Part shown: positions 13,587-34,468 of the stretch, one piece after another
Position numbering within the stretch: the first letter of the stretch is position 1
How the letters are laid out: each line of letters opens with the position of its first letter
Assembly: GCA_965219455.1 (NCBI GenBank)
Contig: OZ244744.1
Location: forward strand, 2,016,001 to 2,080,000
DNA length: 64,000 nt
Source of the DNA: Candidatus Latescibacterota bacterium
Lineage (GTDB): Bacteria > Latescibacterota > UBA2968 > GCA-2709665
Direction of reading: 5' to 3'
The notes under the pieces: generated by a model
What the model was told of the DNA's origin: nothing
What the model saw: only the letters and a program-made list of their open reading frames with translations
Databases searched by the model: none
Translations under genes and position numbers: made by a program

Positions 13587-13592
13587 ACTGCG

Positions 13593-14345
13593 ATGATCGA
13601 CCTTACGATTGAAAACGGAATTGCCTGGCTGACGCTGAACCGGCCCGAGGTGTTGAACGCAATGGATCTCGGAAGTGTGCGGGCGCTGGCCGCGCACCTG
13701 GAAGGGATGCACGAACGGGAGGACGTCCGTATAGTGGTCACCGAAGGCGCGGGTCGGGCGTTCTGTGCGGGGAGTGATCTGACCGACCTGGCGGCGTTGT
13801 CTCCCGCGGAGGCCGCGGCCGTGGAACGGGAACATGAGAATGCATTCGCCCTGTTGGATGCGATACCCCAACCGACCGTCGCCATGTTGCACGGTTACGT
13901 GCTCGGCGGCGGGGTGGGTATGGCGCTGTATCATGACTTCCGGATCGCAGCTGTATCGGCAAGGCTGGGGATGCCGGAAGTGAAACTGGGATGGACGCCG
14001 CCGTGGGGAATGGGACGGCTGGTCGACGTCGTTGGCGGATCGGCGGCAAGGTGGATCGCGATGGGGTGCGAAACGGTAACGGGCGACGAGGCAAAGTGTC
14101 TCGGCCTGGTGCACGACTGCGTTGCGGACGACGTATTGAGGGATCGGGTCAGGGCATTTGCGCTTCGTCTCGCGTCGTTTCCGCCGGTGGCGCTGAGAGA
14201 GACCAAGGCCCTGCTGAACCGGATATCCTCGCCCCGCGACGCAAAGTGGGATGCCGCCGCGTCAGAGGCCTTTGAGCTTTGTTTCGGTACGGACGAAGCG
14301 CGCGCGAACGTGGCCGCGTTCATTGCGCGGAAGAAAAACACATGA
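13593..14345 (+). CDS. Enoyl-CoA hydratase/isomerase family protein
   Basis: LNRPEVLNA, AFCAGSDL, LGGG, MPEVKLG. Confidence 0.92.
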   Translation: MIDLTIENGIAWLTLNRPEVLNAMDLGSVRALAAHLEGMHEREDVRIVVTEGAGRAFCAGSDLTDLAALSPAEAAAVEREHENAFALLDAIPQPTVAMLHGYVLGGGVGMALYHDFRIAAVSARLGMPEVKLGWTPPWGMGRLVDVVGGSAARWIAMGCETVTGDEAKCLGLVHDCVADDVLRDRVRAFALRLASFPPVALRETKALLNRISSPRDAKWDAAASEAFELCFGTDEARANVAAFIARKKNT

Positions 14346-17957: not shown

Positions 17958-19793
17958 ATGGTGTGGAAAGGTGCCGAGCAGGAGATGAACTGGGATCTGA
18001 CGAGCTATTTCCCGGCGTTCAACGGGCCGGTGATGGCCAGTTTCAAGAAAGCCCTGGAGAGGGATACGCAGGATCTGTTGGGTAAAGCGAGGGCGCTGCC
18101 GCCGCTGGCGGAGGCCAACGTGGATACGTGGGAGGACATCTTCCTCCGAAGCGAGGACCTGTTTATGCGGCTGCGTCATCTCGGATCGTACGTGGGATGT
18201 CTGACGGCGGCCGACGCGCGGAACGAGGCGTATCTGAAGGAGGAAGCCGCCCTGACGCTCCAATACGCCGAGGGTTCAAAACTGCAGACCGAGCTGTTGC
18301 GGGGTTTGAAAACGGCATCCGACTGCAGCTTCGAGACCCTCGCCGGCCGGGAGGCGCTATCGGACGCCGGCCATTTCCTTGGACGGATGCGCCGGGAGGC
18401 GCGGTATACGATGGATTCGGAGCGCGAGGCGCTCGCCGCCGACCTGAGGGTGGACGGTATATCGGCGTGGGGCCGGCTTTACGATACCCTGTCCGGGAAG
18501 CTCGAGTTTGAAATGAGGTTTCCGGATGAACGGACCGAGACCCTGCCCATTTCCCAGCGGCGGTCGTTGATGGAAAATCCGGACCGGCGGGTCCGCAAGG
18601 CTGCATTCGAGGGCGGCAACGCCGCGTGGGAGGGGGTTGAAGACGTAACGGCGGCCGCATTGAATGCGATATCAGGCGCGCGACTCACGTTGAACAAGTA
18701 CCGGGAGGTCCCGCATTTTCTGGAGGTGGCCCTGTTCCAGTCCGCCATTACGCGGAAGACACTGGATGCGATGTTCGAAGCGATATTTTCCGAAATCGAG
18801 GTTGGGCGCCGGATCCTGCGTTTCAGGGCGAAGGCGATGGGCGTGCAAAAGGTTGCCTGGTTTGACCTCGGAGCGCCGCTGTCCTTTTCCGATGTGTCGC
18901 CGATGGATTGGGACGAAGGAAAATCCCTGGTGCAGGGTGCGTTCGCCAGGGCCTATCCGGCCCTGGGGGAGTTTACGCAGGACATGTACGACAGGCGGTG
19001 GATCGACTATGAACCGCGCGCGGGAAAACGTCCGGGTGGTTTTTGTACCGGTTCGTCGATGATCTCGGAGTCGCGGATTTTTATGACGTACAACCGGACA
19101 ATGGGTGACGCACTGACCCTGGCTCACGAGGCCGGACACGCGTTTCACAGCCACGTCATGCGCGATCTGCGTCCGTTTGCGCGGGGGTACCCAATGACGT
19201 TGGCGGAGTCGGCGTCCACGTTCGCGGAGATGATCCTGGCTGACGGGGTCCTTTCGGACCCGGAAGTGGATGATCTACAAAAGGCCGTGGTTCTGGATTC
19301 GGAAGTGGGCCACGCCGGCGCCTATCTCATGGACATTCCGGTGCGGTTTGAGTTTGAAAAGGCGCTTTACGAAGAGCGCGGCAGCGGAGAACTGAGCGTA
19401 TCTCAGTTGAAAGCGCTGATGACCGAAAAGCAGCGGGGTGTATTCGGCGACATGCTTCAGGAGGGGGGCGAGGATCCCTATTTCTGGGCATCCAAGCTGC
19501 ATTTCTACATTACGGGAGTCACGTTTTACAATTTCCCTTATACATTCGGCTATCTGTTGAGCCGGGGTCTGTTTGCGGCGTTCAAGAAGGAAGGCCCGGA
19601 TTTCCTGCCCCGGTACGAGAGGTTTTTGCGTTTAACGGGCAGCGACACAGCTGAAAACGTGGCGAAACGAAGCATCGGCAGTGACCTCGAACAGCCGGAT
19701 TTCTGGGTGCGGGCGATCCGCAGCCTTGAGGCGCCGCTGGCACAACTGGAGGTGCTGTTGCCCCGTGTACTGCCCGCGGGCGACGAGGGATAA
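17958..19793 (+). CDS. M3 family oligoendopeptidase (PepF-like)
   Basis: GKRPGGFCT, LAHEAGHAFH, LAESASTFAE, FYNFPYTFG. Confidence 0.95.
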   Translation: MVWKGAEQEMNWDLTSYFPAFNGPVMASFKKALERDTQDLLGKARALPPLAEANVDTWEDIFLRSEDLFMRLRHLGSYVGCLTAADARNEAYLKEEAALTLQYAEGSKLQTELLRGLKTASDCSFETLAGREALSDAGHFLGRMRREARYTMDSEREALAADLRVDGISAWGRLYDTLSGKLEFEMRFPDERTETLPISQRRSLMENPDRRVRKAAFEGGNAAWEGVEDVTAAALNAISGARLTLNKYREVPHFLEVALFQSAITRKTLDAMFEAIFSEIEVGRRILRFRAKAMGVQKVAWFDLGAPLSFSDVSPMDWDEGKSLVQGAFARAYPALGEFTQDMYDRRWIDYEPRAGKRPGGFCTGSSMISESRIFMTYNRTMGDALTLAHEAGHAFHSHVMRDLRPFARGYPMTLAESASTFAEMILADGVLSDPEVDDLQKAVVLDSEVGHAGAYLMDIPVRFEFEKALYEERGSGELSVSQLKALMTEKQRGVFGDMLQEGGEDPYFWASKLHFYITGVTFYNFPYTFGYLLSRGLFAAFKKEGPDFLPRYERFLRLTGSDTAENVAKRSIGSDLEQPDFWVRAIRSLEAPLAQLEVLLPRVLPAGDEG

Positions 19794-21021: not shown

Positions 21022-22002
21022 ATGGAGAAACCGATGAAGTATGGGCGCGTTGAAGGGATTGACACGCCGGTTTCCCGGCTCGTTCAGGGCACGTTGATGC
21101 TGTCGACGGACGACCTGGAGGCGAACATCGGGTTTCTTGACGGGATCCTGGCGCTGGGTTGCAACAGTTTCGATACCGCGCAGATATATGGAAACGGACA
21201 GGCGGAGCGTACGCTGGGTGCCTGGATGGATCGACGCGGCAATCGAAGCGACGTATTCATTCTGAGCAAGGGCGGCCATCCCAATGCGGACCGCCGTCGG
21301 GTGACGGTGTTCGACGTGGCGTCCGATCTGTTTGATTCCCTGGCTCGGCTCAGGACGGATTACATCGACCTCTACCTGCTTCATCGGGACGATCCGGAGT
21401 TGCCGGTGGGGCCGCTCGTGGAGGCGCTGAACGAGCACATGTCCGAAGGGCGCATCCGGGCGTTCGGCGGATCCAACTGGTCGGTGAAGCGCATCGATGA
21501 AGCGAATTTATATGCGCAGAATCACGGCCTGAGGCCCTTCGTGGCCAGCAGTCCGAATTTCAGCCTCGCCGTGCGCATGAAAGAGATCTGGGAGGGCTGT
21601 CTGAGTATCTCCGGTCCTCGAGGGGCCGAGGAACGCGCCTGGTACCGGAAATCGCAGATGCCCGTGTTTTCCTGGTCCAGCCTGGCGCAGGGCTTTTTCT
21701 CCGGACTCCTTTCGCGCGGGAACGTCACGGAGATGGCGAATGAAATGACGGAAGGGTGCGCACAGGTCTACGGATACGAGGAGAACTTCAAGCGGCTGGA
21801 CCGCGCGGTCGAACTTGCCAACGAGCGAGGAAAGACCGTGGCGCAGGTCGCGCTCGCGTTTCTCTTCAACCAGCCTCTGAACGTCTTCACTGTGTCGGGC
21901 TGCAGGTCGGTCGAGGAAAGCCGTCTGAACCAGGAGGCCATGGAAATCCGGCTTTCGCCGGAGGAACTGGACTGGCTGGATCTGCGACGGGACAGCCGAT
22001 GA
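21022..22002 (+). CDS. Aldo/keto reductase
   Basis: FDTAQIYG, LSKG, YIDLYLLHRDD, GGSNW, WSSLAQG. Confidence 0.93.
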   Translation: MEKPMKYGRVEGIDTPVSRLVQGTLMLSTDDLEANIGFLDGILALGCNSFDTAQIYGNGQAERTLGAWMDRRGNRSDVFILSKGGHPNADRRRVTVFDVASDLFDSLARLRTDYIDLYLLHRDDPELPVGPLVEALNEHMSEGRIRAFGGSNWSVKRIDEANLYAQNHGLRPFVASSPNFSLAVRMKEIWEGCLSISGPRGAEERAWYRKSQMPVFSWSSLAQGFFSGLLSRGNVTEMANEMTEGCAQVYGYEENFKRLDRAVELANERGKTVAQVALAFLFNQPLNVFTVSGCRSVEESRLNQEAMEIRLSPEELDWLDLRRDSR

Positions 22003-22242
22003 CGGATAACGTGCAACCGGAGATGGATCTATTCGTCTAAATCCTCAGGATCGGTTTCGTGTCGAAAAACGGGCAGGGTATCCGAGGATCCCGAACCGGT
22101 TTTCCAGGAAATATCCGGCCGAACTGCAAAAAAGCGTCTCCTGCGGCGCTTTGGGCTTGACACAAATAGGCAATAGGGCTAAATATTCGATGTATCATGG
22201 TCGGACCTCAATCACGCATGGATTTGCGCGGGCAATGGAACG

Positions 22243-23892
22243 ATGCCAGGGACAAATTTGAAAACGTTGTTGATTGAAGACAACCCACTGCACACGCGGC
22301 TGATCCGAGAACTGCTCGCCGAGTCAAAGAGCCCGGAATTCGAGGTGGATGCGGCGGATACGCTCACGGAAGGGCTGAACCGGCTTTCAGCGGACGATCA
22401 CGAGTTGCTGCTACTGGACCTGGTGCTCCCCGACAGCGAGGACCTGGACACCTACTACCGCGTGCGCGCCGCATATCCGGACCTGACGGTTGTGATCCTT
22501 TCCAGCATGAAGGATATCAAACTGGCGGCCCGTGCCGTCGAAGCGGGGGCGCAGGATTATCTGGTCAAGTCCCAATTGAACGGCCCCCTTCTGGTACGGT
22601 CGATCCGATACGCCGTAGAACGCAGCCGGGCACTGCACGCCGAATGGGAGTCGCCGATGTTCCGGCTGGCGCAGCAACAGTTTCTGAAGGCCGCCCACCT
22701 GATGGAACTGGACGACAACATCCGGCAGCGGCTTTTGTTTCCCCAGCGTACCCACATGGTCACCTTTCCGTTCCGGCGCGACGAGCACGAGTACGTGGAA
22801 ACGGTCTCGGGTTATCGGATCCAGCATCTGTTGACGATGGGACCCACCAAGGGCGGCGTGCGTTACCATCACGACGTGAACCTGGGCGAGGTGACCGCCC
22901 TGGCGATGTGGATGACCTGGAAGTGCGCCCTGATGAACCTGCCGTTTGGCGGCGCCAAAGGGGGCGTGAGGATTGATCCGACCGTACTCTCACGCTCCGA
23001 ACTGCAGCGCCTGACGCGTCGCTATACGTCGGAGATCATCGACGTTATCGGACCACAGAAGGATATCCCTGCGCCGGATATGGGCACCGACGAACACGTG
23101 ATGGCCTGGATGATGGACACATACAGCCACCAGATGGGACATACCGTGCCGGCGGTCGTGACCGGCAAACCGGTGGTGCTGGGCGGCTCCGAAGGACGCC
23201 GCGAGGCGACGGGACGGGGGTTGGTGTATCTGGTGGAGGAGGCGGCCAAACATATCGGGATGGACCTGCGCCGTGCGACCGCCGTCGTCCAGGGGTTTGG
23301 AAACGTGGGAAGCAATGCGGCGAGATTCCTGGAAGCCTGCGGGGTCAAACTCGTGGGCGTCAGTGACGTGACCACCGGCATTTACAACCCCGATGGTCTT
23401 TCCTTGGATTCGCTGCTGCAACACACGGAAGAAAACCGGTTTCTGGAAGGTTACGCCGGCGGAGATGCCGTGAGCAATCAGGAATTGCTCGAGATACCGT
23501 GCGACATTCTAGTACCCGCAGCCCTGCAGAATCAGATCACAGCGGACAATGCCGAACGGATCACGTGCAGGATCCTGGCCGAAGGCGCCAACGGCCCCAC
23601 CACACTAGAGGCGGACGAGATTCTGCAGGAAAAGGGGACCTTTATCCTGCCGGACGTGCTCGGCAATGCCGGAGGGGTTACGGTTTCCTATTTCGAATGG
23701 GTGCAGGATACGCAGAATTACATGTGGACGCTGGAGGAGATCAACGATAAACTCCGGAAGATTCTGCTCCACGCGTTCCAACGGACCATGCGAAGATCGC
23801 AACGGGACGGGCTGGATATCCGTACGGCGGCGCTCATTGAAGGGATCCACCGTGTAACGCAGGCGAAACTCCTGAGGGGTATCTTCCCATAG
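22243..23892 (+). CDS. Response-regulator receiver domain fused to a Glu/Leu/Phe/Val (glutamate) dehydrogenase
   Basis: aa ~5-125 REC (LLIED, LLLLDLVLPD, VILSS, AQDYLVK); remainder GDH (GPTKGGVRY, MTWKCA, GGAKGG, DIPAPDMGT, VVTGKP, QGFGNVG, EGANGP, NAGGVTVSYFEW). Confidence 0.93.
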   Translation: MPGTNLKTLLIEDNPLHTRLIRELLAESKSPEFEVDAADTLTEGLNRLSADDHELLLLDLVLPDSEDLDTYYRVRAAYPDLTVVILSSMKDIKLAARAVEAGAQDYLVKSQLNGPLLVRSIRYAVERSRALHAEWESPMFRLAQQQFLKAAHLMELDDNIRQRLLFPQRTHMVTFPFRRDEHEYVETVSGYRIQHLLTMGPTKGGVRYHHDVNLGEVTALAMWMTWKCALMNLPFGGAKGGVRIDPTVLSRSELQRLTRRYTSEIIDVIGPQKDIPAPDMGTDEHVMAWMMDTYSHQMGHTVPAVVTGKPVVLGGSEGRREATGRGLVYLVEEAAKHIGMDLRRATAVVQGFGNVGSNAARFLEACGVKLVGVSDVTTGIYNPDGLSLDSLLQHTEENRFLEGYAGGDAVSNQELLEIPCDILVPAALQNQITADNAERITCRILAEGANGPTTLEADEILQEKGTFILPDVLGNAGGVTVSYFEWVQDTQNYMWTLEEINDKLRKILLHAFQRTMRRSQRDGLDIRTAALIEGIHRVTQAKLLRGIFP

Positions 23893-24052
23893 TGTCCCGT
23901 CCCAGAAATATGTTACCATTCATCCGCCGATTCATCCCGTCTCGCTACGTTGCCTTCGCTCGCCGACCTTGGGCAGGGCGCCTTGCTCAGGCGCCTTGCC
24001 AGCCGGGCGACTCGGCGGCCGAATTTCGGCAATCTATTTCTGGGACAGAACA
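23893..24052. mobile_element. MITE-like element, 160 bp
   Basis: 18-bp TIRs TGTCCCGTCCCAGAAATA / TATTTCTGGGACAGAACA (16/18 match); ATAG direct repeats at 23889-23892 and 24053-24056; no ORF. Confidence 0.75.
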
Positions 24053-24067
24053 ATAGGAAGGTCTGAA

Positions 24068-27000
24068 ATGGACGATTATGCCGACCCGCGTCTGGTGCGG
24101 CTGGCCGCGATAGCCGCGCAAACGGCGAATCTTATCGTTGTAATGCTGTCCCTCCTGGTTCTCTGCGGATGGCTGGTCAGCGCACCCGTCGCCGAATGGA
24201 TGTCTCTATTGACGGCGGGGATGTTCGTACTCACGGGCGTGGCGCTGTGGCTGCTGCGCAGCGGGAGGTCGTCCGACAGGCGGCAGTTCCTGGGGAAGGC
24301 AATCGGCGCCGTGGTGGTGGTCTTCGCGTTTCTGGAAATGGTTGGTGCGGGCCCCGTATTTATCGGTTTCGAGGCCGGCGCGGGGCATATGTTGCGCGAT
24401 GAGGCGTGTAATTTCGCCCTGATCGGTCTGGCCTTGTTTCTCTGGCGATTTAAAATCAGAGGAAGCGCATGGCCGGCGCTGACGTGTCTGTCTGTCGCTT
24501 CAATCGTATCGATCGGTTATGCAATTGGACATTTTTACCTGACGCTCTCGCCCCGGGAAGTGACATGGGATATTCAGATGAGCGCCGTCACAACGCTCAC
24601 ATTCGGCCTGCTGTGCATTGGCCTGTTTTTATCCCGACCGGACCTGGAACCAACGACAACCATCGTCAGCTCGACCGCTGGCGGTTCGATGGCGCGCCGG
24701 TTGCTGCCTCCCGCTTTCCTGATTCCGCTGGCTCTGGGCTGGCTCTGGCCTCACAGCGAAGTGATATTGGGCTTCGAATCCGGAATGTCTCTGTTCTCCC
24801 TGGGGGTGATCGTAGCGCTGAACATTCTGATCTGGTGGTACGCCCGGTCGCTCGCGTATCTGGACTCCGAACGGAAGCGCTCAGAACAGGCATTGCGTGA
24901 GAGCGAAGCCCGGCTCAAGCTGGCAATGGAAGCCGCCCACATGGGGAGTTGGGATTCCAACCTGCTGACCGGAGAACTGGTCTGGTCGGATCTGGTGGCG
25001 CCGTTGTTCGGCCTTAAACCGGAAGTGTTCGAAGGTACGCGCGAGGCGTTCTATGGACTCGTGCACCCCGAAGACCGGGCGATGGTTCGCAGTGCGGTGC
25101 GGCGCACGATCAGGGAAGGGGTGGATTTCGAGGTCGAGCACCGGGTTGTATGGCCGGACGGGACGGTTCGGTGGCTGGGAAATAAAGGCCGCGTTTTCGG
25201 CGACGGCGCGGGGCAGTATGTACATATGATTGGTACGGTGCGGGATATCACGCTACGCAAGCGAACCGAGATACAGCTGCAGGAAAAGAACCGGCAACTC
25301 GAGAAAACCGCGGCTGCCGAGCGTGAAGCGAACGAAGCGCTGAAGAAGAGCTCGGTCGCCCTGGAGCGTTCAAGGGCGGAGCTGCAGAAAGCAAAAGACG
25401 CCGCGGAAAAGGCGAATCGCGCAAAAAGCGAGTTTCTGGCCAATATGAGCCACGAGATCCGTACGCCGATGAATGGCATCATGGGCATGACGGAGCTTCT
25501 GGGCAACACGGAGTTGACGCCTCAACAGCGCGAGTATCTCAAGTTGAGCAGGCAGTCTTCGGAGGCCTTACTGGCACTTCTGAACGATATTCTCGATTTC
25601 TCCAAACTCGAGGTGGACCGGCTGGAACTGGAGGCGATCGGCTTCGACCTCCGCGATACGCTGGGGGACACCGTTCAGACCCTTGCGGTTAAAGCCACAC
25701 AGAAGGGGCTGGAACTGGCGTGCCATATTGCACCGGAGGTTCCGGACAGGCTGGTGGGGGACCCGGGCCGTTTGCGGCAGATCGTGATCAACCTGGTGGA
25801 CAACGCCATAAAGTTCACGGAGAAAGGCGACGTGCTGGTTGACGTAAAGGTGGACGCACGGGAGGAAGAGAAGCTCTGTCTGAGGTTCTTTGTTCGGGAT
25901 ACCGGCATCGGGATCGCACCCGAAGATCGGCGGATCATTTTCGACTCTTTCAGCCAGGTAGACTCTTCTACTTCCCGGCGGTTTGGAGGAACGGGGCTGG
26001 GCCTGGCGATTTCATCCCAACTGGCCACGATGATGGGTGGACGCATGTGGGTGGAGAGCGCGCATGACAAAGGGAGCACGTTTTATTTCACAGCGCTCTT
26101 CGAGGCCCAACCCCAGCCGGCGAAGCGGTCGGCGGCCGATCTCCAGTCCCTGGTGGGTCTCCGGGCGCTGGTGGTGGATAACAACCGTACAAACCGGTTT
26201 ATCTTCGAGGAGATGCTGGGAACCTGGGGTATGAAAATTGACGTGGCGGATTCGGGGCCGGCCGCGCTCGAGACACTGCGGGAGGCTGGCGAGGCGGATT
26301 CGCCGTTCCACCTTTTCTTACTGGACGCAATGATGCCCGGTATGGACGGGTTCGCGCTGGCCGAGCGAATACGCCGGGATCCGGATGTGAAAAACGTACC
26401 GATTCTGATACTTTCGTCCGCGGGAAGAACACGCGACGCGGTGCGATGTGACGCCTTGGGGCTTGCGCGATGTCTGACAAAGCCGGTCAAGCAGTCCGAC
26501 CTGCTCGATGCCGCGCTGGCAGCCCTGAACGTAAGCGTTATCGAGCCCGTAGATATCGCAAAGATTGCGGAACCGTTGCCGCCCGCCCATAGGCGCCGCG
26601 TCCTGTTGGCAGAGGACGGCATGGTCAACCAGAAGGTGATTGTGGACCTGCTCGGGCCGCGCGGGCACCAGGTTACCGCCGTCAACAACGGCAAGGAAGT
26701 ACTCGCGGCGCTGGAGAACGACACATTCGACCTGATCCTGATGGATATTCAGATGCCGGAGATGGATGGGTTGGAGGCAACACGGATTATCAGGGAACGG
26801 GAAACGTCGACGGGGGCGCATATTCGAATTGCGGCGATGACGGCCCACGTGATGCAGGGAGACCGAGAGCGGTGTCTGGAACAGGGGATGGACGACTACC
26901 TTTCCAAGCCGATCCGGGCGGGACATCTCTTCGATGTTGTGGAGAATAACGGCTCATCCGGCAGCGTATCGCAGGCGGAGCCCGGCGATGATGCTGTCGC

Positions 27001-27340
27001 TCTGGATTGGCAGGGAGCCCTGGAACAGGTTGGCGGCAACGAGGCGCTTCTGGGTGAACTGGCCGGCCTGTTTGTTACGGAGTACGCGAAGCACCTTGAA
27101 GAAATGAAACGGGCGATCGCAAACGGTGATGGATCGCGGCTGCGGCGCGCGGCCCACACACTGAAGGGGTCGGCGGCTATTTTCCTTGCCGATCCGACCG
27201 TCGAGGCGGCGTTGCGGCTGGAAACCATGGCGCGCGAAGGGGATCTTGAAGACGCGAATGAAGCGCTCGCCGCGCTGGAACGGGCAGCGGACGGGTTGCT
27301 GCCGGCGCTGAAAGAAAAAGCTGCCGCGGTTGTTGCGTAG
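24068..27340 (+). CDS. Membrane-bound hybrid sensor histidine kinase (TM-PAS-HisKA-HATPase-REC-REC-HPt)
   Basis: Several hydrophobic helices; PAS/PAC (VHPEDR, PDGTVRW); MSHEIRTP; NAIKFT, DTGIG, GGTGLGL; two REC domains (LLDAMMP, LMDIQMP); AHTLKGS HPt; start moved to the ATG after the MITE. Confidence 0.95.
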   Translation: MDDYADPRLVRLAAIAAQTANLIVVMLSLLVLCGWLVSAPVAEWMSLLTAGMFVLTGVALWLLRSGRSSDRRQFLGKAIGAVVVVFAFLEMVGAGPVFIGFEAGAGHMLRDEACNFALIGLALFLWRFKIRGSAWPALTCLSVASIVSIGYAIGHFYLTLSPREVTWDIQMSAVTTLTFGLLCIGLFLSRPDLEPTTTIVSSTAGGSMARRLLPPAFLIPLALGWLWPHSEVILGFESGMSLFSLGVIVALNILIWWYARSLAYLDSERKRSEQALRESEARLKLAMEAAHMGSWDSNLLTGELVWSDLVAPLFGLKPEVFEGTREAFYGLVHPEDRAMVRSAVRRTIREGVDFEVEHRVVWPDGTVRWLGNKGRVFGDGAGQYVHMIGTVRDITLRKRTEIQLQEKNRQLEKTAAAEREANEALKKSSVALERSRAELQKAKDAAEKANRAKSEFLANMSHEIRTPMNGIMGMTELLGNTELTPQQREYLKLSRQSSEALLALLNDILDFSKLEVDRLELEAIGFDLRDTLGDTVQTLAVKATQKGLELACHIAPEVPDRLVGDPGRLRQIVINLVDNAIKFTEKGDVLVDVKVDAREEEKLCLRFFVRDTGIGIAPEDRRIIFDSFSQVDSSTSRRFGGTGLGLAISSQLATMMGGRMWVESAHDKGSTFYFTALFEAQPQPAKRSAADLQSLVGLRALVVDNNRTNRFIFEEMLGTWGMKIDVADSGPAALETLREAGEADSPFHLFLLDAMMPGMDGFALAERIRRDPDVKNVPILILSSAGRTRDAVRCDALGLARCLTKPVKQSDLLDAALAALNVSVIEPVDIAKIAEPLPPAHRRRVLLAEDGMVNQKVIVDLLGPRGHQVTAVNNGKEVLAALENDTFDLILMDIQMPEMDGLEATRIIRERETSTGAHIRIAAMTAHVMQGDRERCLEQGMDDYLSKPIRAGHLFDVVENNGSSGSVSQAEPGDDAVALDWQGALEQVGGNEALLGELAGLFVTEYAKHLEEMKRAIANGDGSRLRRAAHTLKGSAAIFLADPTVEAALRLETMAREGDLEDANEALAALERAADGLLPALKEKAAAVVA

Positions 27341-27351
27341 TGGATCGAATG

Positions 27352-27538
27352 CGGAGTCCGCCGGTTGCATTGATGACGAGAAAGCAGATTGGTTTTAACT
27401 AAAGATGATGCCCCCTTTGGGGGCATCTTTTGGTATATTGGGAATGCGAACACTACCTTTGACGTGTCCCCAACCATTCACGGATCCTCAGAATTGGTGC
27501 GCATTTACGTAAAGGTTCCATAACACCGAATTTATGAG
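27352..27538 (+). repeat. Dispersed repeat copy 1 (integrase-tail/terminator/att-like module)
   Basis: Aligns by eye with 28700-28832 and 31695-31883; reads RSPPVALM in one frame; GC hairpin; ends at TAAC-N7-TTAT. Confidence 0.75.
27407..27431 (+). terminator. Rho-independent terminator-like hairpin inside repeat copy 1
   Basis: GATGCCCCC-TTT-GGGGGCATC followed by TTTT. Confidence 0.65.
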
Positions 27539-27696
27539 TGGATTCAGCGCATCTGGAAAATATCTCGTGCTGCTTAATTCAACATTCCAGATCGCAAGAA
27601 ATATGGAGGTCTCCCTCTGTGCTTCTTTTTTCGCGAATCCATCATCTTCCACCCCCGCACAATGGCTTATCGAACCTTAGAGGAAGCGTGTGTGAA

Positions 27697-27721
27697 GGTG
27701 GGGCAGACATTCCTGTCTGCC
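27697..27721 (+). repeat. REP sequence
   Basis: GGTGGGGCAGACATTCCTGTCTGCC hairpin with a GTGG foot. Confidence 0.8.
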
Positions 27722-27974: not shown

Positions 27975-28000
27975 GAGCAGACAGGAATGTCTGCTCCACC
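27975..28000 (-). repeat. REP sequence (inverted partner of 27697-27721)
   Basis: Reverse complement GGTGGAGCAGACATTCCTGTCTGCTC. Confidence 0.8.
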
Positions 28001-28071
28001 TTTTCAAGCCTACCCTTCCTGCCAATAAAGTGTGAGGCAACTTTCCCTCCGAGTTTGATTTAGAATATTGG

Positions 28072-28101
28072 GCCGAGCGGAGAATCTATGAAGAAGGCTA
28101 A
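28072..28101 (+). pseudogene. BrnT-like toxin, C-terminal stub only
   Basis: AERRIYEEG-stop overlapping the start of the next gene, as BrnT C-termini typically do. Confidence 0.5.
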
Positions 28102-28315
28102 TGCGGAAGAGCTTCGTCCTGAATATTGCCGTGAAGATCTCGGTCCCGGCGTCCGTGGAAAGTATCTGGAATCTTTCCGACCGGGGACCAACCTGGTTTT
28201 GCTGCAACCTGACGTCGCGAAGGCATTTCCAACCGAGGAAGCCGTAAATGATGCGCTTCGGTCGTTTATGAACGCGGATGATGGTCCGGTTGACGCCCGG
28301 ACGGGCGGCGAATGA
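28088..28315 (+). CDS. BrnA-like antitoxin
   Basis: ELRPEY, GVRGKY, LQPDVAKAFP...AVNDALR. Confidence 0.7.
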   Translation: MKKANAEELRPEYCREDLGPGVRGKYLESFRPGTNLVLLQPDVAKAFPTEEAVNDALRSFMNADDGPVDARTGGE

Positions 28316-28374
28316 AATTTCGCTATGCTGGGTGAATCCGAGAAGTCAATTTAAACTTGATCCGGAGGACTGTG

Positions 28375-28593
28375 ATGACTCAACTTCTCGAGAAAGCGAT
28401 TTCGGAAATCAAGAAGCTTTCCAATGATGAGCAAGACGCGATTGCGGCCGTCCTGATGGCGGAGTTGGAGTCAGAACGCCAGTGGGAACGTGCATTTGAC
28501 TCGACGGCAGAGCAGTTGTCAGGTCTTGCAAATGAGGCTCTCGATGAATACCGAACAGGCAAGACTGAACCGTTCGAATCGCACGGCTCATGA
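28375..28593 (+). CDS. Putative antitoxin (addiction-module type)
   Basis: MTQLLEKA...EQDAIA....EL..E..W...F...LA.EAL.EY..G.T pattern; GGAGG RBS; ATGA coupling to a toxin-like ORF. Confidence 0.65.
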   Translation: MTQLLEKAISEIKKLSNDEQDAIAAVLMAELESERQWERAFDSTAEQLSGLANEALDEYRTGKTEPFESHGS

Positions 28594-28721
28594 TATCCCG
28601 GACAACCCGTCGTTTTCGTGACGCGCTACTCGATCTTCCCCGACCCGTCCAGGTTCAGGCTGCCGCTGCACGGTCAACTAACAGGATAACTCAATTTTCC
28701 GGAGCCCACCGGATGCATTGA
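28590..28721 (+). pseudogene. Truncated ParE/RelE-like toxin
   Basis: MISRTTRRFRDALLDLPRPVQVQA.. N-terminus, then runs into repeat copy 2 and stops after 43 aa. Confidence 0.6.
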
Positions 28722-28832
28722 TGACACCATAGAGCAGATTGGTTTTAAGTAAGTATGATGCCCCCTTTGGGGGCATTTCTTGGTATATTGGGAATACGAA
28801 CATTACAGGATGATTCGATCCTGAACATTGGT
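28700..28832 (+). repeat. Dispersed repeat copy 2 (3'-truncated)
   Basis: Highly similar to copy 1 over ~105 bp including the ATGCCCCCTTTGGGGGCAT hairpin; reads RSPPDALMTP-stop. Confidence 0.75.
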
Positions 28833-28949
28833 ATATCCAGAGACCTGGAACACACTGTCACAACGGCTCGGCAAACCCGAAATTCGGCACGAACGGAAGA
28901 AGCGCATATACGCGCAGAAACAAAGAATGTCCTCCCCCCAGTTTTCTTC

Positions 28950-28981
28950 TTGTATAACATCATTTATGATGTATATTCTAC
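28950..28981 (+). promoter_or_regulatory. Putative TA promoter with operator palindrome
   Basis: TTGTAT (28950) ... TATATT (28972) with ACATCAT-TT-ATGATGT between; ATG at 28982 without an RBS. Confidence 0.55.
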
Positions 28982-29371
28982 ATGAACCGAAAATGGCGCA
29001 TCCTCTATTACATAGCTGAAAACGGATACTGCCCCGTTCAAGAGTTCATTGATAGTCGCTCAGATCGAGACCAGGCCAAGACGTTCAGTTGGCTTGCTCA
29101 ATTGGAAATAGACGGACCGAGCCTACCCAGGCCATATACGGATCTCTTGGACAGCGGAATCCACGAACTCAGACTAACGCTTTCTGGCGACCAGGTGCGC
29201 ATCCTCTACTTTTTCTGTTTCAGAGATTTCATTGTATTGACCCACGCTTTTGTGAAGCGTACCCGGCGCGTACCGGTCGCTGAAATTCACCTCGCCAAGA
29301 AGTATCGTGAGGATTTCCTTTCTCGATTTGACGAGGGTAGTTTAAAGGAGGAACTGGATGAGGAGCTTTAG
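28982..29371 (+). CDS. Type II toxin, RelE/ParE (Gp49/HigB-like)
   Basis: CPVQEFI, LPRPY..L..GIHELR, RILYFF, LTHAFVKRT. Confidence 0.88.
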   Translation: MNRKWRILYYIAENGYCPVQEFIDSRSDRDQAKTFSWLAQLEIDGPSLPRPYTDLLDSGIHELRLTLSGDQVRILYFFCFRDFIVLTHAFVKRTRRVPVAEIHLAKKYREDFLSRFDEGSLKEELDEEL

Positions 29372-29648
29372 ACGTCATCTGGACGAAAAGCTCAAAGATG
29401 AGCGATTCAGGCGACTGTATGACGAAGAGCGACAGCTTACCGAGCTGTCGTTGAAGATACACCAAATGCGAGCGCAGCTGGGTCTTTCGCAGCAGGAGGT
29501 TGCCAGAAGAGCGAAGGTCACACAACAGCAATTGTCAAAGGTTGAGAATGGGATCAATTGCAATTTGACAACGTTTTTGAAGGTATGCCATGCTCTGGAT
29601 CTGACGGTAGAGTTAGAACGACCCAACGCCAGACAGCAGGTGAGTTGA
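29358..29648 (+). CDS. XRE-family HTH antitoxin (HigA-like)
   Basis: LSQQEVARRAKVTQQQLSKVENG HTH; overlaps the toxin gene. Confidence 0.88.
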   Translation: MRSFRRHLDEKLKDERFRRLYDEERQLTELSLKIHQMRAQLGLSQQEVARRAKVTQQQLSKVENGINCNLTTFLKVCHALDLTVELERPNARQQVS

Positions 29649-29801
29649 TTCTGTGTGGAAGTGAAGCCGCCTACGCCGGTTCATTAGCTCTCTGAAACTC
29701 TTAGATGCCAGGTGAGGAGACGTCCTCGCGCCGTATTTCCAGAAGAAGATATCGATATTTTGCAGGGCGAGCCCTGGACCTGGATTCCTGGAGGTTTGGA
29801 C

Positions 29802-30017
29802 ATGAGAAATGAATTCACCGCGATGATCGAACACGACGGCGAATGGATCATTGCCTTTTGTCCTGAGATCCCCGGCGCCAATGGACAGGGAAAGAACAGG
29901 GACGATGCACTTGCGAGCTTACGAGAAGCGATATCGCTCATCCTGGAGGATCGGCGGGAGGACGGACTTCGCGCTGTGCCTGCAGAGGCGGAACGTGAAA
30001 TTGTCGTGATCGAATGA
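29802..30017 (+). CDS. HicB family antitoxin
   Basis: MRNEFTAMIE.DG.W.IA.CPEIPGANGQG....A..SLREAI; GGAGG RBS. Confidence 0.85.
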   Translation: MRNEFTAMIEHDGEWIIAFCPEIPGANGQGKNRDDALASLREAISLILEDRREDGLRAVPAEAEREIVVIE

Positions 30018-30024
30018 AACGACA

Positions 30025-30074
30025 CCCTTCGGCAGCCTTTCGACCCTTCGACAGGCTCAGGGACCACAAGCTCA
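30025..30074 (+). repeat. CCCTTCGACAGGCTCAGG-type REP-like repeat
   Basis: 47/50 identical to 31557-31606; related inverted unit at 32724-32743. Confidence 0.8.
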
Positions 30075-30180
30075 AGACAATGCTCAGGGTGCAGTCTCAA
30101 ACGCCGAGCTAAGTGTACGAAGACCGTGAGACGTCAAAGGAAACCGGACAAAGGCAATGACATTACAATGGAGGATCTGA

Positions 30181-30765
30181 ATGGCTGGCTGGCTAGAATT
30201 GACATTCCCGGTTGAAGCTGGCAAGGGATCTGTGATTGTTATCGATGACGAACGTGTCCATTTGCTCGCAGATCCCCTCCGGCGGCGCATCCTCGAAACT
30301 CTTGGCGAGGGGAAATCCGTGGAGGAGATTTCATCGATATTGGGTATGACCGATACCCGGGTCCTCCGTCACCTGCAACGACTCGCGGAATCAGATGTCG
30401 TACATCTTCAAGAAACGGGCAGCGATCCCAGGGCCTGGCGATGCATCCCTGTGGCGGGCAAGATTCGAATCCGGGACACACTTGATGAGACGGCCAAAAC
30501 CTCCCTGCCTGTACCTTCGGAGGTTGCCTGTCAGTTTAATCAGGCGTTTCGCGAAAGTGCGGACGGCATATTCGGTCCGAATTTCCAAAGCTCTGTCAAC
30601 CATAACCGGGCTCGACTCTCGGAAGAACAGGCGGCCGAATTCAACCGTCGGCTCCTGGACCTGATAGAGGAGTACTTTCCACCTGGCAGAGGCGATCCCA
30701 CCGGAATCAAGTATGGCTTTTTCGGCGTGCTGACCCCGATTGATCTTCCTCCTATCGAGTCGTGA
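30181..30765 (+). CDS. ArsR-like winged-helix regulator
   Basis: LADPLRRRIL.....KSVEEIS......V..HLQRL; C-terminal LSEEQAAEF...L..LIEEY. Confidence 0.8.
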   Translation: MAGWLELTFPVEAGKGSVIVIDDERVHLLADPLRRRILETLGEGKSVEEISSILGMTDTRVLRHLQRLAESDVVHLQETGSDPRAWRCIPVAGKIRIRDTLDETAKTSLPVPSEVACQFNQAFRESADGIFGPNFQSSVNHNRARLSEEQAAEFNRRLLDLIEEYFPPGRGDPTGIKYGFFGVLTPIDLPPIES

Positions 30766-30916
30766 CAGAAAGGTATTTGCACCCATCTTGCGTGCGAATG
30801 TCCCACATCCTTTCACAACACGGTTACTTCTGTGACCGCGGAGTTCACCCCCAACCCGGCGCGGTTCGGGGGCACTGAACCGTTACGCGCCATTGCAGTT
30901 CGACGGAGATCAAGAA

Positions 30917-31441
30917 ATGACAACCTTCTATCTCATTCGGCATGGAGAACCCAATTGGGATTTAGCTGCCGGAGAGGATCTCAAAGGCGCCCAGGTGGGG
31001 TGGGCAGCCCATATCGTTCCGTTGACCGAGACTGGCATCAGCCAGATTGAGAATGCTTCAAGAACCCTGTCAACTGAAGATCCTGAGCTCATTATTTCGT
31101 CGCCAATGTCTCGGTCGCTGCAGTCGGCTGCCATACTCAGCCGCATACTCGAACTTCCACTTCGAGTCGAGTTTGATCTGCACGAATGGATTTGTGGATG
31201 GCGCGATTCGCTTGAGCTTGTCGGCGAAACCGTGGCAGAAATGCAAAAGCTGGGAGGCGAGTGGCCTCCGGGTGAGACAAGAGATTGGGAGCCGATGTCC
31301 AGTGTGCGCGACCGTGTCAATCGTGTTTTAGGACAATACCGGACCTTCCATCGTGTTGTCGTTGCGTGTCATGAAACCGTTATTCTCTCGCTCACCGGAA
31401 AGAGGATGGGGTTTGCTGAATTTGTAAGGATAGAAAAGTAG
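30917..31441 (+). CDS. Histidine phosphatase (phosphoglycerate mutase) family protein
   Basis: LIRHGE, PLTETG, SSPMSR..QSA, DLHEW, VACH. Confidence 0.88.
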   Translation: MTTFYLIRHGEPNWDLAAGEDLKGAQVGWAAHIVPLTETGISQIENASRTLSTEDPELIISSPMSRSLQSAAILSRILELPLRVEFDLHEWICGWRDSLELVGETVAEMQKLGGEWPPGETRDWEPMSSVRDRVNRVLGQYRTFHRVVVACHETVILSLTGKRMGFAEFVRIEK

Positions 31442-31556
31442 CAGCTTTGTAATCCGAAACCGGGGATCACCATGCCACCGGCTGGCGCATCCAGTGACAC
31501 AACCGGTTGTGCTGCTGTTCGAACGCCTCGGCTATTTCAAATAAAAATAGCACTTG

Positions 31557-31606
31557 CCCTTCGGCCGCCCTTCGACCCTTCGACAGGCTCTGGGACCACA
31601 AGCTCA
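31557..31606 (+). repeat. CCCTTCGACAGGCTC-type REP-like repeat, second copy
   Basis: 47/50 identical to 30025-30074. Confidence 0.8.
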
Positions 31607-31694
31607 GCGTGTAAGCTCAACGGCCCCGCCCGGGGTACGCAAACCGGACGATGTCATACGCAAGTGGGTCGGGCATCGGGATAATCCGCATCTT

Positions 31695-31883
31695 CGGAGC
31701 CCGGTGGACGCATTGATTAACGAAATGTAGACAGGGTTTAGTTAGTGACGATGCCTCCGATAGGTGCATTTTTAAATATGTTCGGAATGCATGAATCTGG
31801 GAGTGATACGTTGCCGAACGTACGGAGATCCTCAGATTTGATGCCTATTGCCGTAAAGGTTCGGTAACATCGTGGTTATAGGC
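31695..31883 (+). repeat. Dispersed repeat copy 3 (most diverged)
   Basis: Reads RSPVDALINEM-stop; 31827-31880 matches 27483-27536 at 41/54 ungapped positions; ends GTTATAGGC. Confidence 0.7.
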
Positions 31884-31954
31884 CATCAGCTAAGACACAA
31901 AGGGGCGCAGGCCCCGTAACACAACCCATATTTTCGCATTCAAAGTCACAGAAA

Positions 31955-32416
31955 ATGGATATGGCAAAACAGAAGATTTATTTGGATTCAACTGTTCCAA
32001 GCGCATATTACGATTCAAGAACCCCAGAGCGCCAAGGACAGACCCTTCAGTTTTGGGAATTACTTTTACCAGATTTTGAGGCGGTTATTTCAAGCGCTGT
32101 CTTGTCAGAAATTCGCGGCACTCCAGATGCTGAAAGAAGAAGGTAATTGGAAAACCTCGTAATGGAATTCGGAGTTTTGGTGTTCGATGAAGAAGCCGAT
32201 ACTCTGGCTCAAGAATATGTCCGAAGGGGTGTTTTTCCGGAAAAATACATAGATGATGCCAACCACGTTGCTATTGCAGTGACCAATGGAATTGAGTATT
32301 TTTGCAGTTGGAACTTCACACATCTCGTAAAAGTAAACACGCGACGCGAAGTTAATACGATCAATGCATTGAAGGGCTATGGACCGATAGAGATTATTGC
32401 TCCGCCAGAGTTATAG
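31955..32416 (+). pseudogene. PIN-domain (VapC-like) toxin with an in-frame TAA at 32144-32146
   Basis: IYLDSTVPS ... DDANHVAIA ... SWNFTHLV ... PPEL; the two ORFs 31955-32146 and 32147-32416 are in the same frame. Confidence 0.8.
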
Positions 32417-32426
32417 GAGGTCATCC

Positions 32427-32612
32427 ATGAGGGAAGTGACCCAGGCAGAGAAGGAGAAGATCCGGGAGGATGTTCGGAAGGAATTTCCGAATGATGAAAT
32501 GATGCAGGAAATACACTTCATTCGGCAAGTACATTATTTACAGACTAAAGATTCATCAATAGAAGAACGCCTTCGCTTTTTTGAAGGTCCAATTCAGAAG
32601 ACATCGGTATAG
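32427..32612 (+). CDS. Small hypothetical protein, probable partner of the PIN toxin
   Basis: AGGAGG RBS; 61 aa; directly follows the PIN gene. Confidence 0.6.
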   Translation: MREVTQAEKEKIREDVRKEFPNDEMMQEIHFIRQVHYLQTKDSSIEERLRFFEGPIQKTSV

Positions 32613-32820
32613 TTGGATAAGAAATTGGCGATGGTGCGTCCGAGATGCGGCAGCCCTCTATCGTTTTATGCGAAGGGGGCTGTCAGCGTATAACACGCAC
32701 GGTTAAGCTACGTTCACGGAGTTTATCCTGAGCTTGCCAAGGGCGCGACGGTTTTCGGCAACAACCCGCGCGGGTCCGCAAACCGTGAAACGCTAAAGGA
32801 AAAATGGCCCTGGAAGGAAC

Positions 32821-33549
32821 ATGAAGATCGCGGTACTGACTGATGTCCACGGCAATTTGCCGGCACTACAGGTTGCACTGAAATCAATTCGGCGAGAGGG
32901 TGTCGATGCGATTTTTCATACAGGCGATGCCATCGGTATTGGCCCATTCCCGGCAGAATGCCTGGAACTGCTGCTGAGCACGCCTGGTATGAATCTGATT
33001 TGCGGTAATCATGACTCCTGGTTTTCGAGCGGGCTTCCAAGACCATCCAGGATGAGCGACGGCGAGTTGAAACATCAGGAGTGGGTACATTCCTGCCTTG
33101 ATCCATCACTGCGTTATACAGTGAGACAATGGCCGTACCTGATTCAAGATGCGTATAAAGGCGTTCGAATATCGTTTCTTCACTACGGCCTTACAGAGTC
33201 GCAGGTTGACTTCACGTCCGTCATCCAGAACCCTCGTCCTGTGGACCTGGACAAAGTCTTCGCGGATATAAAATCCGATCTCGTATTCTATGGCCACAAT
33301 CATTCAGCTTCAGATTTAGTGGGGACGGCCAGATACGTAAATCCCGGTTCTCTGGGCTGCCATTCTGAACCCATTGCGCGGTTCGCCATCCTGGAGTGCG
33401 AGAGAGGGAGATACGAATTGAATCTGCGCCACGTTCCTTACGATGATAGCGCCCTATTCCAGCAGTTTGAAAGTCGCGATGTTCCCGAACGGCATTTCAT
33501 CTATAATACATTCTTCGGTGGACGGAATGCACCAACCCGCCCCGGATGA
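32821..33549 (+). CDS. Metallophosphoesterase (YfcE-like)
   Basis: DVHGN, TGD, GNHD, GHNH, VNPGSLG. Confidence 0.9.
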   Translation: MKIAVLTDVHGNLPALQVALKSIRREGVDAIFHTGDAIGIGPFPAECLELLLSTPGMNLICGNHDSWFSSGLPRPSRMSDGELKHQEWVHSCLDPSLRYTVRQWPYLIQDAYKGVRISFLHYGLTESQVDFTSVIQNPRPVDLDKVFADIKSDLVFYGHNHSASDLVGTARYVNPGSLGCHSEPIARFAILECERGRYELNLRHVPYDDSALFQQFESRDVPERHFIYNTFFGGRNAPTRPG

Positions 33550-33664
33550 GATATCCTCTGACATGGTTGAAGAATGGCAATCAAACGACTGGTGAATCAA
33601 CTACCGAACATAATAGTATCTTTCGCTGAATGACGTCCGGTGCTTTCGGGCATCTGGGAATACC

Positions 33665-34468
33665 ATGACGGTCAATCGTATGCCAGTTCGGATTAAGGCC
33701 TTTTGCGTCGGGCAGGCAAAGTCCGGAACGGCATCTCTCGTCGGCCTGCTTTCAGCCAATTACCGCGCGGCCCATGAACCCGAGCGCCCGGAGTTACTCA
33801 GTATGATACTCCGCGAATCCCGGGGTGAACTCTCCGCCGAGGCCTTCCGTAGGTTTCTCCTTGAGCGTGACGTCCGGCTCAACCTGGAGTATGATGTCTC
33901 GTGGCCAAACCAATTTATCATAGACCATTTGCTGCACGTCTTCCCGGCCTCGAAGTTCATCGTTCTCATTCGCGACAGCTATACGTGGCTCCAATCGGCC
34001 ATCGGGCACGTCATCAGCCGGGAGATGCCCTCTGAAATCTTAAACTTTCTCCCCTGGTGGATCAAACCGGAACGCTATCCCCACTCGCGTCAGGATCGCG
34101 CGCTTGCAGAGCGCGGGCTTTTTTCTATTGCGGCCTACCTGCACGCCTGGAACGGGCATGTCGACAGGTGCACCCGGCTGATCCCTGAGGACCGGCGGCT
34201 TTTACTTCGGACCCATGAACTGGCTCGTTCGCATGGGCGATTGGCGGACTTCCTGGAAATACCCGAGGATTCACTCGACGCCGACAAAGGGCATCAAAAC
34301 AGCAGCACCTGGCCGGACCGGATCGAGTCCCTCGTCGATCCGTTCTACATCGACGAGATGGTCCAATCGATATGTGCAGACAACATGGCCCGTCATTTTC
34401 CTGAAATAAGAAGAGCTCAGGATGTGTCGCGGCTATGGGAAGCCGTGCCGCGTGAGCCTGCGACCTGA
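33665..34468 (+). CDS. Sulfotransferase-like P-loop protein
   Basis: GQAKSGTASL (5'-PSB-like), AHEP, FIVLIRD...WLQS (3'-PB-like). Confidence 0.7.
   Translation: MTVNRMPVRIKAFCVGQAKSGTASLVGLLSANYRAAHEPERPELLSMILRESRGELSAEAFRRFLLERDVRLNLEYDVSWPNQFIIDHLLHVFPASKFIVLIRDSYTWLQSAIGHVISREMPSEILNFLPWWIKPERYPHSRQDRALAERGLFSIAAYLHAWNGHVDRCTRLIPEDRRLLLRTHELARSHGRLADFLEIPEDSLDADKGHQNSSTWPDRIESLVDPFYIDEMVQSICADNMARHFPEIRRAQDVSRLWEAVPREPAT

Follow-up and report, generated by a model that had tools for sequence, protein, structure and literature searches.

Structure of REC-GDH and the adjoining hybrid kinase

We analysed a 64,000-nucleotide stretch of the genome of a Candidatus Latescibacterota bacterium (contig OZ244744.1, positions 2,016,001 to 2,080,000; called the window below, with positions counted from its first letter) that carries two neighbouring forward-strand genes: one for a glutamate dehydrogenase (GDH) with an N-terminal response-regulator receiver (REC) domain, here named REC-GDH, and one for a hybrid sensor histidine kinase that ends in a histidine phosphotransfer (HPt) domain. 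The REC-GDH gene (22243-23892, +) encodes 549 amino acids, in which Pfam profiles identified a receiver fused to a complete GDH. The receiver (22267-22572, +; residues 9-110) matched Response_reg (PF00072) at E 1.4e-15 and 57.8 bits against a cutoff of 30.2, and the two halves of the dehydrogenase matched ELFV_dehydrog_N (PF02812; residues 167-296, E 1.1e-52, profile positions 1-129 of 129) and ELFV_dehydrog (PF00208; residues 314-546, E 1.6e-79, profile positions 1-241 of 241). The receiver active-site set consists of E12, D13, D59, S87 and K109, with the phospho-acceptor Asp59 encoded at 22417-22419; the acidic pair, the Asp, the Thr/Ser and the Lys at these places have well-established roles in receivers generally. 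E12, D13, D59 and K109 were invariant in 55 of 55 REC-GDH receivers (the window and the 54 listed loci described below), with S in 12 and T in 43 of them at position 87.

The GDH body (22648-23889, +; residues 136-549) aligned with residues 3-416 of the 416 of Thermotoga maritima GDH (1b26) at E 2.8e-140 in a sequence search, and the AlphaFold2 model of REC-GDH (mean pLDDT 88.5, pTM 0.79, from an input alignment of 64 sequences) matched the fold of 1b26_A with a TM-score on target of 0.91. The hexameric GDHs of approximately 50 kDa from T. maritima, Thermus thermophilus (GdhA/GdhB, 3aoe) and Bacillus subtilis (RocG, 3k92) all aligned end to end with residues 136-549 (E 2.8e-140 to 1e-118), and hexameric GDH structures matched the model with TM-scores on target of 0.82-0.96 at approximately 44-52% identity; compared to these enzymes REC-GDH adds a 135-residue N-terminal receiver and linker. 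The receiver part was absent from the best 50 structural matches listed, all of them chains of 392-427 residues. The best solved relatives of the GDH body were glutamate dehydrogenases, except for one entry described as a phosphinothricin dehydrogenase. The motifs GPTKGG, GGAKGG (Lys239 at 22957-22959), PAPDMGT and the dinucleotide fingerprint GFGNVG (G351-G356, from 23293) were kept in an alignment of 20 sequences. K203, K227, K239 and D279, which we take to be catalytic and substrate residues by Clostridium symbiosum GDH numbering, were together with G351-G356 invariant in 20 of 20 aligned sequences and at least 90% conserved in 64. The GDH part is thus an intact predicted fold with conserved motifs, and its activity is predicted; the NCBIfam equivalog cutoffs for GDH were not reached (GdhB_Halo, 496 bits against 620; GdhA_Arch, 483 against 750). 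Between the two parts lies a highly conserved linker (22582-22704, +; residues 114-154; EW.SPMFRLAQQQFLKAA), identified from the AlphaFold2 model and the alignment, in which receiver helix alpha5 (114-135) continues into the first GDH helix (138-154).

Database searches placed this protein among many close relatives. The database protein P0003 has 90% identity to it, and all of the best 120 matches (68-90% identity) contain the same three Pfam domains; taxa named for them include Planctomycetota (Gimesia), Latescibacterota, Gemmatimonadota and Oceanospirillales. The architecture is already catalogued, under automatic annotations such as 'response regulator'. After clustering at 50% identity, approximately 7 of the best 150 representatives were full-length receiver fusions, and the nearest plain GDHs in the same search aligned from around residue 130 onward with 48-54% identity. 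REC-GDH is, as judged from these sequence comparisons, a large, tight and uncharacterised family. Seven GDHs (P0135, P0136, P0146, P0149, P0189, P0198 and P0223) carry N-terminal extensions of approximately 100-260 residues that are not receivers; that of P0135 contains a CTP_transf_1 (cytidylyltransferase) domain, and the six others had no Pfam match. GDH may have gained N-terminal regulatory modules several times.

Immediately downstream on the same strand lies an unorthodox hybrid sensor histidine kinase of 1090 amino acids (24068-27340, +). The longest open reading frame (ORF) of the kinase runs from a TTG at 23969 to 27340, and alignment with relatives placed the start at the ATG at 24068: all eight of the closest relatives begin at the aligned ATGGACGA, following a conserved AGGAAGG or AGGA(A/C)G. 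In the window this ribosome-binding stretch, AGGAAGGTCTGAA (24055-24067, +), sits just 5' of the ATG and aligns with that of the eight relatives. The presumed sensor is an N-terminal polytopic membrane region (24068-24838, +; residues 1-257) with around six hydrophobic segments of 19 amino acids within residues 23-257, as counted in a Kyte-Doolittle hydropathy scan and not by a topology predictor. Residues 1-275 had no Pfam match at E up to 0.01, and the ESM Atlas grouped the region with unnamed membrane clusters (0.94 and 0.90); MASE3, at only 0.83 in the same resource, was a mere lead and was not adopted as the identity of the sensor. A PAS domain follows (24911-25249, +; residues 282-394; PAS_3 at E 1.6e-19 over 304-391, PAS at E 1.1e-05), and then the transmitter, HisKA and HATPase_c (25421-26095, +; residues 452-515 and 564-676), with the phospho-accepting His462 at 25451-25453. 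Two receivers come next. REC1 (26162-26512, +; approximately residues 699-815) carries Asp753 at 26324-26326 and has Asn as its second acidic residue (VVDNN), and REC2 (26600-26941, +; residues 845-958) carries Asp893 at 26744-26746 within the canonical E-D...D...T...K set. The C-terminal HPt domain (27056-27295, +; residues 997-1076; Pfam Hpt, E 2.3e-14) contains its phospho-His, His1030, in the motif AHTLKGS (27155-27157). All Pfam domain matches of the kinase were above cutoff. The best NCBIfam similarities were to BarA (491 bits, cutoff 890), TorS (465, cutoff 676.5) and ArcB (358, cutoff 838), all under cutoff; by these scores the kinase is of the BarA/ArcB/TorS type, yet an orthologue of none of them.

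This domain order is the one that the earlier note had read from the letters: a membrane kinase 3' of REC-GDH on the same strand, with PAS, HisKA, HATPase, two REC domains and a C-terminal HPt. Its statement that the window holds no other response regulator was likewise borne out. Pfam detected no REC, HisKA or Hpt domain in the 55 other non-overlapping ORFs of at least 90 amino acids in the window, and custom REC, kinase and HPt profiles run over its 741 stop-to-stop frames of at least 50 amino acids matched only these two genes.

The two genes are separated by 175 bp (23893-24067), most of which is an insertion of 162 bp (23893-24054) delimited by alignment of the junction with relatives and located between the REC-GDH TAG stop codon and the kinase ribosome-binding stretch. 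Without it 13 bp are left, close to the approximately 15 bp given in the earlier note, and the formerly tight spacing proposed there is matched by gaps of 11-16 bp in seven of the eight closest relatives (proteins approximately 90% identical), the remaining one (L003) having 52 bp. The insertion is short and non-coding, and its 18-nt terminal inverted repeats (23893-23910 and 24035-24052) agree with each other at 16 of 18 positions. Its predicted fold is a single long hairpin (-73.4 kcal/mol, z = -4.62), and none of 200 shuffled sequences folded as well. Six of the eight relatives (L001, L002, L004, L006, L007 and L008) have an empty site and L005 has three extra bases, and the 52-bp gap of L003 shares both ends with the window insertion. 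Since L003 keeps this shortened version with both ends, the insertion is not recent. A TAG/ATAG direct repeat occurs at both ends; it shares bases with the stop codon, and a repeat this short could have arisen by chance. The insertion had been called a miniature inverted-repeat transposable element (MITE). The short inverted-repeat structure and the empty sites in six of eight relatives agree with this name. The window holds one copy, and no second one was found in the 64 kb or in 73 fetched loci, which is weak evidence against a multicopy element. 'MITE-like insertion' is a fair name, and 'MITE' is unproven.

Transcription signals around the pair were few. A GC-rich hairpin with a 9-bp stem and T-runs on both strands (27407-27427), found as a consensus match 67 bp past the kinase stop codon, is likely the end of the transcription unit. 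It is much stronger than the terminator-like site at 24018-24030, which is weak and the only one within the insertion; across the region five terminator-like sites were found against 5.0 expected by chance. A scan of 21900-27700 returned no sigma-70-like promoter. By eye, a TTGACA at 22157-22162 is followed 17 nt on by TAAATA, a pair that fails the scan rule and is not claimed as a promoter.

Conservation of the gene pair across genomes

To survey the pairing, the N-terminal 194-residue REC-GDH alignment was scanned over one genome per species, yielding at least 73 loci, of which at least 54 (numbered L001-L054) encode REC-GDH in other genomes; the remaining loci encode other receivers or plain GDHs. 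Up to 10 kb of flank was inspected on each side, or less where contigs end, and neighbours were identified by tblastn with the window proteins and by profiles of the window's domains in all stop-to-stop frames, with a Pfam check on 15 partner proteins. Enough flank for a decision was present in 49 of the 54 listed loci, with contig ends barring L018, L028, L029, L033 and L053.

Neighbourhood conservation, named in the earlier note as a check on the pairing, was found: an HPt-bearing gene adjoined REC-GDH in 44 of the 49 informative loci. In 41 of these it encodes a full HisKA-HATPase-REC-REC-HPt kinase, located downstream on the same strand (31 loci), upstream on the same strand (six loci) or downstream and convergent (four loci). 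L011 was counted in the second group, as its full kinase ends at 9989, just before the REC-GDH gene, where an upstream open frame lengthens the GDH ORF. The other three neighbours are an upstream REC-HPt cut by the contig start (L040), a free-standing REC-HPt (L010, 11613-12440, +; 275 amino acids stop to stop) and a free-standing HPt (L021, 1769-2233, +; 154 amino acids stop to stop), so that in L010 and L021 the relay is, by domain content, split into separate proteins; L010 also has a single-domain receiver at 13294-13650 (-). The occurrence of three gene orders argues for selection on the linkage, as read from these arrangements, over inherited synteny. Five loci (L015, L027, L048, L049 and L054) had no such neighbour despite adequate flanks; in L054 the receiver (9950-10339) and the GDH (10261-11637, +) lie in different frames, which reflects a frameshifted gene or an assembly error.

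No other REC-bearing gene was present in the fetched flanks of 47 of the 54 listed loci. The closest receiver-less GDHs among the loci listed, L059 (74% identity) and L062 (71%), have no adjoining HPt kinase. A larger conserved operon was considered and dropped, since the neighbours of 18 loci share nothing: Pfam analysis of 33 neighbouring ORFs from these loci revealed no shared third gene and returned an assortment including a tryptophan dioxygenase with a permease, a TRAP transporter with an amidohydrolase, MttB, aconitase and peptidases. In the two Gimesia loci (L013, 11658-14264, -; L014, 11816-14422, -) a second hybrid kinase of PAS-HisKA/HATPase-REC layout without HPt lies convergent and downstream of REC-GDH, in addition to the HPt kinase upstream. 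This kinase may feed a second signal into the relay.

The pairing spans at least six labelled phyla among the REC-GDH loci listed, and cultured carriers include Halomonas, Zobellella, Sinorhizobium/Ensifer, Ruegeria, Gimesia and Enhygromyxa. A FastTree phylogeny of REC-GDH mostly grouped by phylum, with some mixing and unreliable labels of metagenome-assembled genomes (MAGs), and horizontal transfer is for this reason not claimed as the explanation of the approximately 70% identity found across phyla. Phylum labels within the window's clade are inconsistent: L001 and L002 (and L008) have near-identical REC-GDH genes, separated by branch lengths of 0.004, and carry the submitter labels Latescibacterota and Gemmatimonadota.

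Partner kinases outside the window's clade shared 42-57% identity with the window kinase (tblastn), over an aligned core of approximately residues 270-1089 of the window kinase, or approximately 380-1084 in most loci. The N-terminal sensor regions, by contrast to this shared core, were unrelated among loci according to Pfam: dCache_1, HAMP and PAS in the Gimesia kinase, two PAS_7 in those of Sinorhizobium and Litchfieldella, four PAS_3 in Amphritea, CHASE, GAF and PAS_7 in Cribrihabitans, GAF and PAS in Halomonas, XylR_N/V4R and PAS_4 in Enhygromyxa, and the unclassified membrane domain in the window's clade. One kinase, in a gammaproteobacterial MAG (L026, 11632-13779, -), has no sensor and has an H-NOX (HNOB) gene directly upstream (13784-14335, -). 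Kinases associated with H-NOX are known for nitric-oxide sensing. This gene arrangement, present in one of the 41 full-kinase loci listed, suggests nitric oxide or another gas as a possible input to GDH control in the L026 lineage, whereas the window kinase has a membrane and PAS sensor.

The phospho-accepting residues of the core were strictly kept. The phospho-His, the N-box Asn and the G1 Asp were invariant in 41 of 41 kinases, as were all five active-site residues of REC2 and the Asp (Asp753 in the window) and Lys of REC1. The only phosphorelay residue that varied was the second acidic position of REC1, which was N in nine kinases (the window's clade) and D in 32. The HPt His and the Lys three residues on were invariant in all 44 HPt domains found beside REC-GDH. 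Pairwise identities of REC-GDH correlated with those of the kinase core (r = 0.948, 41 pairs consisting of the window and 40 loci, with L011 left out), a value that none of 2000 permutations reached and that stayed the same when the window's close clade was left out (n = 32). The two genes are thus inherited together, which is no proof of co-evolution at an interface, because the REC-GDH tree largely follows phyla.

A predicted phosphorelay with a metabolic enzyme as output

We consider it probable, at roughly 65%, that the gene pair is a dedicated signalling module with an enzyme, not a transcription factor, as its output. A signal would be sensed by the N-terminal membrane and PAS region of the kinase, which would then autophosphorylate on His462. 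The phosphoryl group would pass from there to an internal receiver, most likely at Asp893 of REC2, the receiver of canonical hybrid-kinase type, with Asp753 of REC1 as a second or modulating site, and would then be handed to His1030 of the HPt domain and on to Asp59 of the REC-GDH receiver. Phosphorylation of Asp59 would alter the pairing or orientation of the receivers on the GDH oligomer and thereby the catalytic activity, so that the flux of glutamate, 2-oxoglutarate and ammonium could be adjusted in seconds without new gene expression. Taken across lineages, the transmitter core and REC-GDH would act as a portable output cassette onto which different sensors are grafted.

What we infer is the order in which the phosphoryl group moves, its passage from the HPt domain to REC-GDH, how and in which direction the enzyme would be affected, and co-transcription in the window. 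That REC-GDH is the receiver of the HPt kinase, as had been suggested earlier, is supported by the conserved adjacency at the 44 loci. The HPt-to-REC-GDH step in particular is proposed because REC-GDH is the sole receiver conserved beside the HPt domain, because an HPt alone can be the minimal conserved neighbour (L010 and L021), and because phosphotransfer from HPt domains to separate receivers is established. An effect of phosphorylation on the GDH is expected because alpha5 of the receiver runs directly into the first GDH helix, and receivers usually control the effectors fused to them through a rigid helical link of this kind. Structure prediction of the HPt-REC complex gave scores of 0.39, 0.42 and 0.38 against 0.48 for a single unrelated-protein control and was counted neither for nor against binding.

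The window kinase shares the HisKA-HATPase-REC-HPt layout and the phospho-accepting residues with the kinases of the BarA/UvrY, ArcB/ArcA, TorS/TorR and EvgS/EvgA systems, and the His-Asp-His-Asp logic of these systems, ending on a separate receiver, would be expected likewise for the window pair. It differs from them in having two internal receivers and a sensor region of no known family, and an enzyme takes the place of a DNA-binding domain on the presumed terminal receiver. Response regulators with enzymatic outputs are well known and include the CheB methylesterase, the PleD and WspR diguanylate cyclases, the HD-GYP protein RpfG and REC-PP2C phosphatases. REC-GDH resembles all of these in having an N-terminal receiver joined to a catalytic domain via alpha5, but their outputs are signalling enzymes acting on messengers or signalling proteins, whereas that of REC-GDH is an oxidoreductase of central metabolism. 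In Actinobacteria the kinase PknG and the FHA protein GarA/OdhI control GDH and 2-oxoglutarate dehydrogenase post-translationally. As proposed for REC-GDH, a sensor kinase pathway there ends on the activity of a glutamate-node enzyme and not on transcription; the PknG pathway, in contrast, relies not on a His-Asp relay to a fused receiver but on a separate inhibitor protein, phosphorylated on Ser/Thr, which binds GDHs of a different, large class. We view the window system as a putative phosphorelay with an enzymatic-output response regulator, a dehydrogenase of central metabolism being that output.

Glutamate dehydrogenase (EC 1.4.1.3) appears in a table of the 2009 paper on the P2CS database (PMC2716373), where it is classed as a 'Probable' enzyme of two-component systems. 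Apart from this listing, no study of a receiver-fused GDH or of its pairing with a kinase was found in the full-text literature, a search largely outside subscription journals. GrtK/GrtR (PMC12918730) is a classical system with transcriptional control of a gdh gene and was set aside as unrelated to REC-GDH. The conserved kinase pairing of REC-GDH and its meaning thus appear undescribed within the literature searched.

Several observations weigh against a dedicated module. The kinase has two internal receivers, either of which is a candidate for feeding the HPt domain, and REC1 of the window's clade has lost one acidic residue. Five of the 49 informative loci have REC-GDH without an adjacent kinase or HPt gene, so the two genes need not be linked, and other kinases can presumably take the role. 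The flanks alone were inspected, and unlinked response regulators elsewhere could be the main targets of the kinase. The identity correlation would be expected from shared descent alone as well, and the hairpin between the genes in this window may uncouple their expression.

These points leave room for other readings, each of which we regard as less likely than a dedicated module. REC-GDH could act as a metabolic input or a phosphate sink, with the state of the GDH tuning the flow of phosphate from the kinase to an unlinked response regulator: as a 'trigger enzyme', the GDH body would report glutamate, 2-oxoglutarate or NAD(P)H and thereby alter the uptake or loss of phosphate by the receiver. 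Both roles have precedents, in the B. subtilis GDH RocG, a trigger enzyme acting on GltC, and in single-domain receivers that serve as phosphate sinks in some chemotaxis systems. Two internal receivers and an HPt domain would allow such branching, and the five loci that have REC-GDH without a linked kinase also fit, but no second response regulator is conserved nearby, the flanks of 47 listed loci being free of any other REC gene, and the covalent junction of receiver and enzyme through a conserved continuous helix is the normal geometry of effector control. We consider this reading unlikely. It is less probable still that adjacency reflects only co-regulation or shared history, with REC-GDH being served by another kinase or by small-molecule donors such as acetyl phosphate while the neighbouring kinase signals to an unlinked transcription factor. 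Orphan REC-GDH genes and an inspection limited to 10 kb or less per side would be compatible with this, yet adjacency at 44 of 49 loci, kept over at least six labelled phyla with three different gene orders and unrelated sensors, is hard to account for unless the two are directly tied in function, and in L010 and L021 the sole signalling neighbour is an HPt protein. The role of HPt proteins is to hand phosphate to a receiver.

A further alternative concerns this genome only, in which the module could be uncoupled or decaying because the hairpin blocks or lowers kinase expression. The 162-bp insertion and its stable hairpin separate the REC-GDH stop codon from the ribosome-binding site of the kinase, and the weak terminator-like site falls inside it. 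Against this, both frames are intact and approximately 90% identical to those of relatives, the ribosome-binding stretch and start codon are untouched, and terminator-like sites occur at the level of chance. The shortened insert of L003, with both genes intact, further indicates that the insertion has been tolerated for some time, and we regard loss of the module here as improbable.

Genomic setting and biological meaning

Upstream of REC-GDH and on the same strand, Pfam identified peptidase genes of the S15 X-Pro dipeptidyl peptidase (5842-7542), M55 D-aminopeptidase (10389-11213) and M3 oligopeptidase (17958-19793, all +) families, and by ORF sizes only, the M3 peptidase and the three genes between it and REC-GDH are apparently syntenic in the closest relative, L004. 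Judging by these neighbours, the GDH may have its place in the breakdown of peptides and amino acids. A long same-strand run of genes for peptidases and other enzymes contains a DDE transposase gene (PF13701/PF01609; 8873-10354, +). On the other side of the pair, G+C content falls to 0.50-0.53 in 28000-34000 compared to 0.58-0.63 on either side. Gp49-like/HTH gene pairs resembling HigB/HigA toxin-antitoxin systems (Pfam) are located in this low-G+C stretch (28982-29648) and just past it (36055-37148), and an acquired island may begin here, directly behind the kinase terminator. Resistance-like families, assigned by Pfam only, occur at 4188-5753 (+), 38057-39094 (+), 41701-42708 (+) and 53635-54525 (-), and comprise an aminoglycoside 3-N-acetyltransferase domain protein, two APH-family phosphotransferases and a class-A-type beta-lactamase-family protein.

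Looking beyond the window, we lean slightly towards a broader reading in which the HisKA-HATPase-REC-REC-HPt core and REC-GDH form a widespread portable cassette, present in at least six phyla, that couples diverse signals directly to GDH catalysis. On the same reading, held no more firmly, these signals would comprise Cache and CHASE ligands, GAF and PAS inputs and probably nitric oxide via H-NOX. In nearly all accounts, two-component systems switch genes, motility or second messengers. If true, this would be the first known His-Asp phosphorelay that switches an enzyme of primary metabolism, at the carbon-nitrogen branch point, by means of a built-in receiver, and a phosphorelay onto GDH would amount to direct, fast and signal-dependent control of the reaction between amino-acid nitrogen and the tricarboxylic acid cycle. 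The occurrence of the pair in cultured, tractable bacteria makes the hypothesis open to bench testing. Varied sensors on one fixed output would be a natural example of modular rewiring, and REC-GDH would offer a handle on how receivers regulate a large oligomeric enzyme, as well as a possible part for the synthetic control of metabolic flux.

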